A DNA stretch of 64,000 bases from Elusimicrobiota bacterium (lineage in GTDB: Bacteria > Elusimicrobiota > Elusimicrobia > UBA1565 > UBA9628). Where the stretch lies: positions 559 through 64,558 of the forward strand of contig DATLUA010000040.1 of NCBI GenBank assembly GCA_035533295.1, given 5' to 3'. How positions within the stretch are numbered: the stretch's first letter is position 1; each line of letters starts with the position of its first letter. Below are positions 33,780 to 37,154 of this stretch, piece after piece. The notes under the pieces were generated by a model that made no database searches, was not told the origin of the DNA, and worked only from the letters and a program-made list of their open reading frames with translations. The position numbers and the translations under genes were made by a program.

Positions 33780-33849
33780 TGCAGCAGCCGCACCAACTCC
33801 TGGTTGGCTTGGCTCAAATCCACGCCGGTTCCCTGGTATTGGCGGAGGA
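33780..33849. repeat. 70-bp direct repeat copy A (69/70 identical to 35797..35866); encodes a decayed duplicate of the last ~30 codons of gene 35787..37154
   Basis: tgcagcagccgcaccaactcctggttggcttggct(c/t)aaatccacgccggttccctggtattggcggagga occurs twice. On the minus strand, copy A reads ...VLKSLLRQYQGTGVDLSQANQELVRLLQNR* with a stop at 33770-33772. Confidence 0.8.
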
Positions 33850-33855
33850 GGCTCT

Positions 33856-34563
33856 TCAAAACAAATTGTAGCAATGGTACTCGCACACGCCCAAGTCCAG
33901 GTGGCATTCACTGCGACTACAACCCCCACAGTTTCTGGGTATTGGCGAAGGACAAATTCTCGGCGGGTGCCCCCGCCCCGGTGGTGGCGGCGGTGGTGGC
34001 GGTGGCGGCGGTGGTGGCGGCGGCGGCGGCGGTGGCGGTGGCGGCGGTGGTGGTGGCGGCGGTGGCGGCGGTGGCGGCGGTGGTGGTGGTGGTGGCGGCG
34101 CGCCGCAGGTCAACGAGCAGCTCCCCGCGAATTGTTGGACGTTCCCGGCGATATCTTCACAGACTCCCCAGGTATCGTAGGGTGAAGAATCGGTGCTATT
34201 GGGACCCGCGGTCTTGCGCGCGGCCGAGGCCACGATGCAGGGCGCCGTCGGATCGTCCGCGCCGGCAAAGCTGTAAGGCAAATCGCCCCAATCCTGTTCG
34301 GTCAAGCACCCGCTGGTCACCAGCGCATTGGCGTTATCGCTGATGGGGCCCGTGAGAAACTGGCCGCCGTTGACGTGATTCATCCGGTTGCACGTCGCCA
34401 GCATTCCCACGACGGATGCGGCAAACTGCTGTTTAGAGATCTCTTCCGACTTGATGTATCTGGGCAAGGAAATCGCGGCCAGGACGCCGATGATGACGAG
34501 GACGACGAGCAACTCGGTCAGGGTGAAGCCCCGCAGCCGACGCATCTTCATCCTAAGAAGCAT
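33856..34563 (-). CDS. Type IV (IVa-like) pilin with 40-residue polyproline tract and Cys-rich C-terminal module
   Basis: RLRG|FTLTELLVVLVIIGVLAAISLPRY is a canonical prepilin. A pilin-like domain of ~120 aa follows, then P x40 (aa 156-195), then GRGHPPRICPSPIPRNCGGCSRSECHLDLGVCEYHCYNLF. Confidence 0.65.
   Translation of the reverse strand: MLLRMKMRRLRGFTLTELLVVLVIIGVLAAISLPRYIKSEEISKQQFAASVVGMLATCNRMNHVNGGQFLTGPISDNANALVTSGCLTEQDWGDLPYSFAGADDPTAPCIVASAARKTAGPNSTDSSPYDTWGVCEDIAGNVQQFAGSCSLTCGAPPPPPPPPPPPPPPPPPPPPPPPPPPPPPPPPPPPPPPPPGRGHPPRICPSPIPRNCGGCSRSECHLDLGVCEYHCYNLF
33979..34098. repeat. (GGN)40 trinucleotide simple-sequence repeat (CCN on coding strand) encoding the polyproline tract
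   Basis: 120 bp of uninterrupted ggt/ggc triplets on the plus strand. Confidence 0.9.
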
Positions 34564-35776
34564 GATTTCTCTTCGCGGCGGGAATACGCGCGGCAGTGGC
34601 GGCGGTTGACGCCGGGCGGCGGAAGCCCTTGTCCTGCATGTAGAGCGTCATGACCGCCATGGCGTCCTGCGCGCGCCCGCTGGTGTTGTTATAAACCGCG
34701 ACCAGCTCGTAGTCGTGGCTCTTGTATAAGGGAAGGCCCGACTCGCTGGAGTAGGAGCCAACTTCGGACAAGCCTATCGCATCGGCCCGCTCTTTCGCCC
34801 TCGCCGTCCAGAGCGTCTTGCCCGCGGTCAGGTCGCGCAGGGCCAGGCTCACCGCGAAAGGATGCAGATGCGCCTCGATGTAATGGACGCGCGTGTCAAA
34901 GGGCAGGTTCAGGAGATGGGTCGCCAAGGTGCGGTAGACGTGCCGGCCCGGCGGCACGGCGAAGTGTCCGGAGTAGCGCCGCCCCTGCGCGTCGGTGTAG
35001 ACGCTGCCCATCATGGCGTTGGGCGCGTTTTGGCCGGGCGCGCAGGCCGCCGCGGCCTGGGCGGGAGTGGGGCGCGCCGCGCCGAAGACCTCCGGCCGCC
35101 CGTCGAGGCTCACCATGACGAAAGGGGAATCGGCGAAAAGGGGCTTCATCGGCCGCCCCGCGCCCTTGTCCGGCGCGAACTCGATGGTGATTTTGTGGCG
35201 GACGCGATAAGAGCCGGGATGGTTGAAGTTGAGCACCTGGGTCGCCACCGACAAGGGCTCGTCGGACATCAACGGCATGCCGTAACCGGGCGGAAAGCGC
35301 ACGCTCAACTGCCCCTGCGAGAGGGTCGCGATGCGGATGCTGACGTTTTTCTTCCAGCCGAAGAGCGCGCGGTGGCGCGCCATGTCGGCGAAATCCAGGT
35401 TGGCATGGCACATGAAGTCCGCGGGCCTGGGCCTTTTGCCCCGCGGGCCCACCATTTCGGTTTTGAAGCCCGTAATCCAAAGGAGCCCCGGCGGCTTTTC
35501 CGCGTCGAGAACGACATCCCGGACGCTCGACGGGCCTTCCATGGACTTATAGAACCGATCGACGAGATAATCCCGGGACAAGACCACCTTGGTCGCCGCG
35601 CGGCCGAAGACGGCCGAAGACAGGGCGGCAAAAGCGAGGGCGCACGAAAAAAGGCCGCGACGGAAATGCCGCTTGGTCATCTTTTGCCTATGGCGCAGAC
35701 AAAGTTTACCCCCCCCCGCCGCGAAAGTCAAGTAAAAAACCAGTAAACCAGCGAATGCCGGGAAATGCGTCGGCAT
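34553..35776 (-). CDS. Hypothetical secreted protein (likely start at ATG 35680, MTKRHFRRGLFSCALAFAALSSAVFG signal peptide)
   Basis: Normal amino-acid composition and a predicted signal peptide. No recognisable motif. 11-nt overlap with the polyPro pilin gene. Confidence 0.45.
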   Translation of the reverse strand: MPTHFPAFAGLLVFYLTFAAGGGKLCLRHRQKMTKRHFRRGLFSCALAFAALSSAVFGRAATKVVLSRDYLVDRFYKSMEGPSSVRDVVLDAEKPPGLLWITGFKTEMVGPRGKRPRPADFMCHANLDFADMARHRALFGWKKNVSIRIATLSQGQLSVRFPPGYGMPLMSDEPLSVATQVLNFNHPGSYRVRHKITIEFAPDKGAGRPMKPLFADSPFVMVSLDGRPEVFGAARPTPAQAAAACAPGQNAPNAMMGSVYTDAQGRRYSGHFAVPPGRHVYRTLATHLLNLPFDTRVHYIEAHLHPFAVSLALRDLTAGKTLWTARAKERADAIGLSEVGSYSSESGLPLYKSHDYELVAVYNNTSGRAQDAMAVMTLYMQDKGFRRPASTAATAARIPAAKRNHAS

Positions 35777-35786
35777 CAGAGGCGGA

Positions 35787-37154
35787 CTATCTGTTCTGCA
35801 GCAGCCGCACCAACTCCTGGTTGGCTTGGCTTAAATCCACGCCGGTTCCCTGGTATTGGCGGAGGATGCTTTTCAAGTCCTCGATGAGCGCGGAATCGGC
35901 CGCGCCCTGGCTCTTCATCTGCTGGTAGGCGCTCCAGTCCTTCTCGAAAAGAATCTGCGGGGTGTTTTTCTCGGCCGCGGATTTCTCCCGCAGGCGCTTC
36001 TCCTTATCCTGGATGCTTTGGAATTTTTGCAGGGAATCCTGATACTGCTGCTGCAGATCGCCCAGCCGCTTGCGCGCCTCGGCCTCGGAAATGGTCCGGT
36101 TCAGAAGCTGATTATCCAAGACCTTTATCTCGTCGCGCAGGGCATTAAGCTGCTGGGAGAGCTGCCACTGCTTGTTCTCCGCGGCTTCGAGCTCCCGCAG
36201 GAGAATGCCGCGGTAGTCCGTTTCATCCTTAAGCATGCGCTCGAACTCGGCCTCGGGGTCGGAGGCGCCGAAGCGCCAGGAGACAGACAGGGCGTTGCCC
36301 AGGCGCGCCGCGCCCTTCAAGGGAATGGTGAGCGCGTAATCCGCCTCGCCGCCCATGATTTTCCAGCCCAGACCCATGCTCCAGGTCTGATCCCTATCGC
36401 CGGCGCGAAGCCCGAGACGCGCGGCCACGGCGCCATGCCGCACGGTTTCCCACCAGCGCTCCAAGCCCGCGCCGGCGCTGGTTTCCTCGCGGTAGAGCCC
36501 CGAGGGGCCCTCGTGGGCGACGTCGAAAACGAAAGTCATGTCCCGGACCGATTCGGACACGCCGGCGCGCAAGTCCACCGGCGGCTTGACGCCCCCGACC
36601 CGGCCGCCGCTCAGGTTTAAAATCGAGACCCCAGCGGCATACTTGTCATGAAAGCGCTCAACGGCTCCCATGTCCAAGGCCACGGTCATATCCGAAGCCC
36701 CCCCGGTGGCGGCAGCCGCGTCCAAAAACTTGAGATTCCCGCCCGCCTCGAGATCATCCCCCGGCGCCTGCCACAGCCCCTGGGTCGCGTAGCTAAACTG
36801 GGTGGTCCGCTCCGAGGAATAATTGAGCGGGGCGTCGTAGATTTCCGAAAGTCCCAGCACGCCGACGCTCACCGGCGCGACGGCGACCAAATTGGCTTGG
36901 CTTTGATCCGTAAAGCCGGCCGGAAGGTTGAATTGCCGCAAGGCGTTCAAGGAAAGCGAAACGTGCCTGGCAAACGCGATGCCCGCGGGGTTGTAGAACA
37001 CGGCGGCCGGATCGCCGGTCATCGCAGTGAAAGCGCCGCCCATGGCCACGGCTCGCGCGCTGAAGCCCTCGTCCTCGAAAGAAGCGTAAAGCGGAGATGC
37101 TAAGCCCAAAAAAAGCGCGGCTACGACGGCGGGGCGAATCATAGGAAGCCTCAC
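35787..37154 (-). CDS. FadL/PorV-like beta-barrel N-domain fused to C-terminal coiled-coil domain
   Basis: Signal peptide, then FSARAVAMGGAFTAMTGDPAAVFYNPAGIA (the same family motif as 27049..28029) and ~290 aa of beta-rich sequence. The C-terminal ~150 aa are heptad coiled coil (QLNALRDEIKVLDNQLLNRT...). Confidence 0.5.
   Translation of the reverse strand: MRLPMIRPAVVAALFLGLASPLYASFEDEGFSARAVAMGGAFTAMTGDPAAVFYNPAGIAFARHVSLSLNALRQFNLPAGFTDQSQANLVAVAPVSVGVLGLSEIYDAPLNYSSERTTQFSYATQGLWQAPGDDLEAGGNLKFLDAAAATGGASDMTVALDMGAVERFHDKYAAGVSILNLSGGRVGGVKPPVDLRAGVSESVRDMTFVFDVAHEGPSGLYREETSAGAGLERWWETVRHGAVAARLGLRAGDRDQTWSMGLGWKIMGGEADYALTIPLKGAARLGNALSVSWRFGASDPEAEFERMLKDETDYRGILLRELEAAENKQWQLSQQLNALRDEIKVLDNQLLNRTISEAEARKRLGDLQQQYQDSLQKFQSIQDKEKRLREKSAAEKNTPQILFEKDWSAYQQMKSQGAADSALIEDLKSILRQYQGTGVDLSQANQELVRLLQNR
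35797..35866. repeat. 70-bp direct repeat copy B (functional 3' end of gene 35787..37154)
   Basis: See copy A. It encodes the authentic C terminus ...GTGVDLSQANQELVRLLQNR*. Confidence 0.8.

Follow-up and report, generated by a model that had tools for sequence, protein, structure and literature searches.

The 64,000-nt stretch of Elusimicrobiota DNA analysed here (contig DATLUA010000040.1 of assembly GCA_035533295.1; the window, below, is this whole stretch) carries a two-gene islet at the 3' end of a gene for a PorV/PorQ-like beta-barrel protein. Related genomes have a single copy of this gene end and are homologous to the window on the outer flanks, so 33861-35777 is an insertion specific to the window lineage, and it came with a target duplication of ~100 nt. 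We argue, with slightly more confidence than doubt, that this islet, which has no integrase, was left by a small circular (or ends-in) DNA that carried its own end of the barrel gene and integrated in the Campbell manner. A first-pass annotation of the window had read the repeats around the cassette as the footprint of an element that integrated into a gene end. The empty sites, the duplication and the hybrid repeats support that reading. This is a known kind of feature and the mechanism is not new. It is, however, a clean and well-delimited gene gain in an uncultivated phylum, with target site, hybrid repeats, empty sites and cargo all visible. The main parts of the locus are these:

35787..37154, minus strand: target gene, PorV/PorQ-like beta-barrel with C-terminal coiled coil, intact despite the insertion
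35778..35877, minus strand: copy B (attL-like), the barrel gene 3' end, comprising its last 91 nt including TAG 35789-35787 and ~9 nt more
33861..35777, minus strand: inserted DNA, 1917 nt, absent at every related locus
33761..33860, minus strand: copy A (attR-like), an orphan duplicate of the segment, with the native intergenic region after it
31940..33709, minus strand: 589-aa coiled-coil/propeller-like gene, 62-72 nt after the barrel gene in all relatives

Barrel homologues were traced to contigs, which carry the L labels used below, and lineages were compared by locus. In every lineage checked the order is the barrel gene, a gap of 62-72 nt and then a gene of 587-589 aa. The two cargo genes, a prepilin gene and a gene for a secreted protein that we call X, are absent there. 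The empty sites are:

L001, genome GCA_027451985: barrel 84% identical
L002, genome GCA_028870215: barrel 82% identical
L011, genome REEB145
L003/L004, genome GCA_054611295: barrel 63% identical
L015 type (L012, L015-L017), the closest lineage: ~88-90% nucleotide identity to the window over 10-13 kb
L018: counted as a sixth lineage; possible assembly chimera

Barrel protein identity across these six lineages runs from 63% to >90%. In multiple alignments the parts homologous to the relatives are the upstream flank of copy B and the downstream flank of copy A. The first-pass annotation would have given up its reading if the relatives all shared the arrangement with diverged repeats; all of them show a single-copy empty site.

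An opposite history would make the arrangement ancestral and have it lost repeatedly in the relatives by recombination of A with B. Deletion between 100-nt direct repeats is easy, and it would leave exactly the hybrid of B-upstream part and A-end that the relatives have. This requires at least four independent losses, or else a window lineage that lies outside all the others. Yet the window lineage is nearest to the L015 type, with a synonymous divergence (dS) of ~0.44 as against ~0.86 to L001. The identities already point to a window lineage nested among those with an empty site. Moreover, the divergence between A and B is 6%, as against ~30% for the most distant empty-site lineage. We regard this history as very improbable.

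The near-identical 70-bp direct repeats first reported at this locus are real. The 70-mers at 33780-33849 and 35797-35866 agree at 69/70 positions, with 33815/35832 as the sole mismatch, and they are in fact the core of a repeat of 96-100 nt. Without gaps the repeat extends to 90 nt at 93%, and blastn gives 96 nt with 6 mismatches and 1 gap. The single-copy L001 segment 11266-11365 (100 nt) aligns by blastn to the window twice, at 35877..35778 and at 33860..33761. A 69/70 match cannot arise by chance within 64 kb, and there are no further copies of the 70-mer in the window with up to 12 mismatches tolerated. The repeat consists of the last 91 nt of the barrel/coiled-coil gene and a few bases past its stop. 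Copy B terminates the barrel open reading frame (ORF) on the minus strand (...LKSILRQYQGTGVDLSQANQELVRLLQNR). Copy A reads ...LKSLLRQYQGTGVDLSQANQELVRLLQNR in frame with its own stop, as annotated (TAG 33772-33770), and there are stop codons 45 codons upstream. The resulting 45-codon ORF (MPPGLGRVRVPLLQFVLKSLLRQYQGTGVDLSQANQELVRLLQNR, window 33770-33907, minus strand) overlaps the prepilin 3' end in another frame, and a convincing ribosome-binding site was not seen for it.

A degenerate pattern of the core at the peptide level has 2 matches in 185,579 species genomes (L010, which belongs to the L001 genome, and L011), 1 in the JGI metagenomes (L012) and 0 in the IMG/VR viral contigs. Across these genome, metagenome and viral collections all matches sit at barrel gene 3' ends, one per genome. 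Copies at unrelated loci, which the first-pass annotation took as the sign of a generic repeat, did not turn up in these peptide-level scans. A generic repeat is rejected, as the segment has two copies in the window and elsewhere lies only at barrel gene ends in the three collections. The repeat is also rejected as a structured RNA or a member of a known RNA family (fold z-scores of -0.2 to -0.9; zero Rfam matches in the window), and the same values leave a cis-acting RNA role unsupported. Nor is the target a tRNA, the sole one in the window being at 54863-54950.

The make-up of the two copies is the next line of reasoning. Their six differences were polarised by the two closest alleles, those of the L015 type and L018. 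Upstream, at the three sites aaA/aaG, Atc/Ctc and ttA/ttG, it is copy B that has the relatives' state (35871, 35867, 35832) and copy A that has the incoming one (33854, 33850, 33815). At the stop-proximal sites (caG/caA, AgA/CgG) the relatives' state is in copy A (33779, 33775, 33773) and the incoming one in copy B (35796, 35792, 35790, reading caG and AgA). The differences are split 3+3, and the switch falls inside a stretch identical in both copies:

33780..33814 (partner 35797-35831), minus strand: inferred crossover interval, 35 nt identical, between variable sites 3 and 4

A hybrid pattern of this attL/attR kind is what a single crossover would be expected to leave, and we take it as suggestive rather than strong. 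One of the six differences is Ile/Leu and the other five are synonymous, therefore both copies diverged as coding sequence. The incoming states equal the L001 allele at 5/6 sites, and TAG+TCCGCC resembles the TAG+CCCGCC of L001. Since the differences are mostly synonymous and match L001 so well, the incoming repeat would be another allele of the same coding sequence and not a copy that decayed in place. The change from CGG to AGA needs two hits within one codon, and the end of copy B looks imported, not mutated in place. Copy B had been called the authentic 3' end of the gene at first. It is the functional gene end, but its last three variable sites (caG, AgA) are not in the state of the closest relatives. 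The accompanying idea that an element brought a replacement 3' end agrees well with an incoming state at the end of copy B, the relatives' state at that place in copy A, and the reverse at the three upstream sites. The native sequence would be the upstream part of B with the end of A. The incoming one would be the upstream part of A with the end of B, then TCCGCC and the cassette:

Reconstructed attB, copy B upstream part with copy A end: ...TTGAAAAGCATC...GATTTAAGCCAAGCC...CTGCAAAACCGGTAGCTCCGCTGTAACATT
Reconstructed circle junction attP: ...CTACAATTTGTT-TTGAAGAGCCTC...GATTTGAGCC...CTGCAGAACAGATAGTCCGCC-TCTGATGCCGACGC

These exact junction sequences now allow existing read sets to be searched for excision or strain polymorphism.

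What is observed is an insertion with its duplication, the empty sites and the way the differences split. From these observations we infer a single crossover, a circular intermediate and an acting enzyme, which could be a recombinase encoded elsewhere or RecA working on ~100 nt of homology. The incoming DNA would have consisted of X, the prepilin gene and its own copy, ~100 nt long, of the barrel 3' end. It would have recombined once with the chromosomal barrel gene, with the crossover in the 35-nt identity (33780-33814 / 35797-35831). Copy B would then be the native upstream part joined to the incoming end, and copy A the incoming upstream part followed by the native end and the native intergenic region. 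In this scenario the barrel ORF is intact because copy B got a synonymous replacement end, and the 589-aa gene keeps its own upstream DNA because copy A ends native. Since the incoming repeat is a slightly different allele of the gene end, the islet would earlier have sat at the same site in a related lineage. A decayed third copy, described next, suggests an even older event at this site.

Between the copies there are exactly two genes, X and the prepilin gene, as had been said of the polyproline pilin and the secreted protein from the start. The features of the insert are:

34553..35680, minus strand: cargo gene X, secreted, 375 aa; its longest ORF starts at 35776 (407 aa)
35703..35731, minus strand: sigma-70-like promoter match TTGACT-17-TAAACT, within the inserted DNA at its left end and ahead of the X start (35680); a consensus match only
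33856..34551, minus strand: cargo gene 2, prepilin (MKMRRLRG/FTLTE...), 231 aa, starting 1 nt past the X stop
33979..34098, minus strand: proline run of 40 consecutive codons in the prepilin
33883..33952, minus strand: copy C, 65% identical over 71 columns to 35866..35801 and collinear with it, 22 nt upstream of copy A

Close homologues of the prepilin were not found (the best is 34% identical); the window also has a prepilin peptidase and further pilin genes. The TGA that ends the prepilin gene (33858-33856) falls among the first bases of copy A. Copy C is probably a decayed third copy of the barrel 3' segment. Its local score is 17 against a null of 7.9 +/- 1.4, a value reached by 2 of 4951 random 100-mers, and it ranks best in the 5.3-kb locus after A and B. 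The region that holds it encodes, out of frame, the 40 residues past the polyproline run, that is the C-terminal tail of the prepilin. X also has an altered end. Its DNA homology to the closest relatives stops at 34611, and it carries a C-terminal extension of 15 aa past the end of the L005 protein, its closest homologue. Copy C, the break and extension in X, and the prepilin running into copy A imply that the insert is a composite with older scars.

X belongs to a large unannotated family with 475 matches in several phyla, some of them fused to cyclophilin, and it has no match among Pfam and PDB sequences. Its AlphaFold2 model (predicted local distance difference test score, pLDDT, 91.8) has a two-domain beta-sandwich fold like that of peptidylglycine alpha-hydroxylating monooxygenase (PHM) and dopamine beta-hydroxylase (DBH). 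These two enzymes are also its structural matches in Foldseek, where the top hit is DBH 4zel (E 1.7e-7) with many PHM entries at probability 1.00 and template modelling (TM) scores of 0.35-0.57. PHM and DBH bind copper through three His at one site and His-x-His plus Met at the other. In 51 homologues of X the residues H92, H103, H239, H271-x-H273 and M341 are invariant. Because of the PHM/DBH-like model and these His and Met residues we take X to be a putative secreted copper monooxygenase-like protein, and its family may be an undescribed bacterial family of such proteins.

X is found at two other kinds of loci in the relatives. In the L001 and L002 genomes (L008, L009) it comes after a gene for a MacB-type ABC transporter and a GT2 gene. 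In L005-L007, contigs of the JGI samples that also gave the L015 type, it has a trypsin-like gene on one side and a glyoxalase gene on the other. X thus has three chromosomal contexts in three related lineages (L005 10001-11044; L008 10001-11053; L009 3073-4188), with a divergence that looks vertical. By its positions, X reads as a gene relocated at least twice. No repeats flank it at L005, L008 or L009, so X does not carry such repeats elsewhere. Against the L005 copy its dS is 0.46 with an omega of 0.19, and the flanking core genes have dS of 0.40-0.47. Because the dS of X equals that of the core genes, X counts as native to the clade and under selection rather than as a distant import.

Several points weigh against a Campbell-type integration. 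The cargo, judged by its dS, is native to the clade and not obviously foreign. No integrase, transposase or other recombinase is encoded in the two ORFs of the 1.9-kb insert or among the 27 window ORFs scanned, which bears out what the first-pass annotation said of a missing integrase. Genome, metagenome, viral, plasmid and phage searches found no autonomous relative, no second occupied site and no circular junction. The imperfect palindrome in the crossover stretch is not significant, being equalled or beaten by 37% of random 100-mers from the window. It must also be noted that the split rests on six sites, and that a perfect 5'/3' segregation has p ~0.05-0.08 under independent mutation after a duplication in place.

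Such a duplication in place is itself an alternative. Here a break at the barrel gene end would be repaired with DNA of the same genome, either captured or copied, by template switching or break-induced replication, with X copied from its old locus. About 100 nt would be duplicated, and divergence and a partial homogenisation by gene conversion would follow. Relocation within the genome is plausible, given that dS makes X clade-native and that relatives have it at two other loci. The native last codons of X are replaced at the prepilin junction, and the prepilin reads into repeat-derived DNA; both resemble illegitimate junctions. It also speaks for this alternative that no recombinase was found among the 27 ORFs scanned. 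The timing is possible too, as the synonymous-site difference between A and B (~0.23) is below that between the window and the L015 type (0.33). The split of 3+3 and the agreement with the allele of another lineage at 5/6 sites are, however, unexpected for independent mutations. Copy C, at 65%, cannot share the age of copy A, at 94%. No standard repair route is known to yield a clean ~100-nt target duplication with both neighbour genes intact. We consider this alternative unlikely, although it deserves to be taken seriously.

An integrated element would show much of what is seen here. Direct repeats duplicate the target gene end, and the synonymous replacement end leaves the barrel ORF intact. 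Related genomes have an unoccupied single-copy site, and the repeats are hybrids about a crossover point, as judged from six sites only. A tyrosine or serine recombinase encoded by the element is lacking. An insertion sequence or transposon is rejected: there is no transposase, the duplication is ~100 nt, and no inverted repeat joins 35777 to 33861 among the 24 pairs listed. A plasmid, phage or viral origin of the cassette is rejected as well, there being no match except the generic prepilin N-terminus.

Among known systems, Campbell-type single-crossover insertion-duplication by homologous recombination, known from integrating plasmids, places an insert between two hybrid copies of a homologous segment. 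That is exactly the same product as the islet. It needs a circular molecule that bears the homology, and no such plasmid or circle is known for this islet. Integrative mobile elements exploiting Xer (IMEX) lack an integrase, use the host XerCD at dif, and are flanked by good and degenerate copies of the host site. The islet is like them in being integrase-less with good and degenerate site copies. It is unlike them in that its site is a gene end and not dif. A dif-like site has two inverted arms of ~11 nt about a spacer of 6-8 nt; the best dif-like candidate, in the crossover stretch, has 8/11 arms (AGCCAAGCCAA-CCAGGAG-TTGGTGCGGCT) and its palindrome is the non-significant one above.

A cis-mobilizable element (CIME), as PMC5704250 has it, is an element without integration genes that kept attL and attR. 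The islet fits an integrase-less, CIME-like element whose membership in the class is incomplete. It kept attL/attR-like repeats and has no integration or transfer genes; an autonomous relative with a cognate integrase at the same att site was not found in this thinly sampled clade. Other likenesses are the extra decayed att-like copy, as in tandem accretion, and the replacement end that keeps the target intact. The islet differs in its size of only 1.9 kb, in a cargo gene X that is clade-native by dS, in having no known related autonomous element or cognate integrase, and in that its repeats are only putative recombinase sites. Integration at a single-copy gene end is described for the Dehalococcoides vcr islands at ssrA (PMC3146451) and for the dusA-specific islands (PMC4482086). 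Both resemble the islet in occupying one conserved gene end and in a presence that varies between related genomes. They also encode an integrase beside the att site, which the Elusimicrobiota islet does not. The target here, a protein-coding PorV-like gene of Elusimicrobiota, is not described as a site of integration, there being no match in the collections searched.

Two further possibilities concern the conserved core. Near the insert no stretch is better conserved than the core, which has 2 differences in 66 nt to L012 as against ~10% overall. At the protein level, conservation in the coiled-coil half of the barrel protein is highest in the C-terminal motif GVDLSxANQELxRLL (window 35787-35877; P0005, P0006, L004), and this holds down to 42-44% overall identity. 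A role as a functional interaction motif is likely. Because this motif is conserved, the DNA of the core is conserved enough for recombination.

The first possibility is an import of the whole structure into the window lineage by ordinary double-crossover homologous recombination, the donor being a related strain in which the order barrel, B, cassette, A and 589-aa gene already existed. The core would be the preferred crossover point of such a cassette swap, and its conservation as well as the origin of the incoming repeat allele in a related lineage agree with this. The mosaic contigs L014 and L018 could be true recombinants within the barrel gene. But with an empty recipient both crossovers would have to share one 35-nt target, which amounts topologically to a Campbell insertion. 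The cassette is not securely documented in a second strain background: L014 and L018 come from one sample, lie at contig ends and may be chimeras. We find such an import rather improbable. Even if it happened, it would explain how the window lineage acquired the structure and not how the structure first arose; it is compatible with a Campbell-type origin.

The second possibility is more far-reaching. The last ~70 nt of the PorV-like barrel gene, which are conserved, might be a dedicated docking site where small integrase-less cassettes of surface and pilus accessory genes are inserted, stacked and swapped among Elusimicrobiota strains, by a recombinase encoded elsewhere or by homology alone. 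If this were true there would be a cassette-exchange locus beside a gene cluster for a Tad pilus and a system like the type IX secretion system (T9SS). We give this idea little credence. The case at hand shows that accessory surface genes, here for a polyproline prepilin and a secreted PHM-like protein, can be added beside a secretion/pilus cluster with the neighbours undamaged.

It is also worth considering the assembly itself, since the window comes from a metagenome-assembled genome. The cassette could have been misjoined through the repeat, and L014 and L018, from another sample, do look chimeric. The exact runs in the repeat are just 35 and 34 nt long and the copies differ at six sites, so that assemblers could tell them apart, which makes a misjoin through the repeat unlikely. 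The same structure is found in the ENA MEGAHIT contig L013 (78,987 nt), 100% identical over 5.3 kb, and no other locus with the segment exists in the collections scanned. An artefact of this kind is hardly credible. Five contigs carry the exact 407-aa X protein, and for the exact barrel protein there are 3 contigs on record, the longest of 80,478 nt. Exact look-ups of the window barrel and 375-aa X products returned nothing; it was the 407-aa form of X that matched contigs.

The contigs L014 (1-3132) and L018 (9963-11887), both of sample ERZ27256814, change allele within the barrel gene at one and the same place, window ~36384-36416. In its 5' part L014 is of the L015 type, and at 3' it is of the window type, with zero mismatches and the cassette. 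L018 is identical to the window for 10.7 kb and then has a third allele and an empty site. Either recombination took place at the boundary of barrel and coiled coil, or the assembly joined strains into chimeras; owing to the latter possibility these mosaics are not used as evidence. In particular, L018 is not relied on as a near-isogenic empty-site strain, since with L014 it comes from the same sample and may be a chimera. L014 continues (3133-4212) with unrelated DNA after a polyproline run of 17 codons, and on the opposite strand an ORF with a signal peptide and polyglycine starts there. This part is probably a misjoin through a low-complexity GGN/CCN tract. Because the run in L014 has 17 codons, the length of the prepilin proline run may be unreliable or variable.

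All genes of the region are on the minus strand, and both genes that flank the insert are undamaged. Beyond the 589-aa gene there is a 1269-aa FlgD_ig/CHU_C protein and then a second PorV-like barrel. Within window 27049-37154 the two PorV/PorQ-like barrels and the 1269-aa protein, which has a T9SS-type C-terminal domain, adjoin a Tad/Flp pilus cluster with TadE, RcpC, secretin and a T2SSE ATPase. This arrangement of barrel and Tad/Flp genes is kept across these Elusimicrobiota lineages (also L001 17212-21356). The intergenic DNA between the barrel and the 589-aa gene has an imperfect palindrome (TGTAACATTTTCGCC...GGCGAAATTCCTGTTACA; window 33716-33760, minus strand). Its first arm, GTAACATTTT(C/T)GCCAT, is kept in all relatives, including one at 63% protein identity. 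For the 589-aa gene the palindrome is a candidate operator or promoter element.

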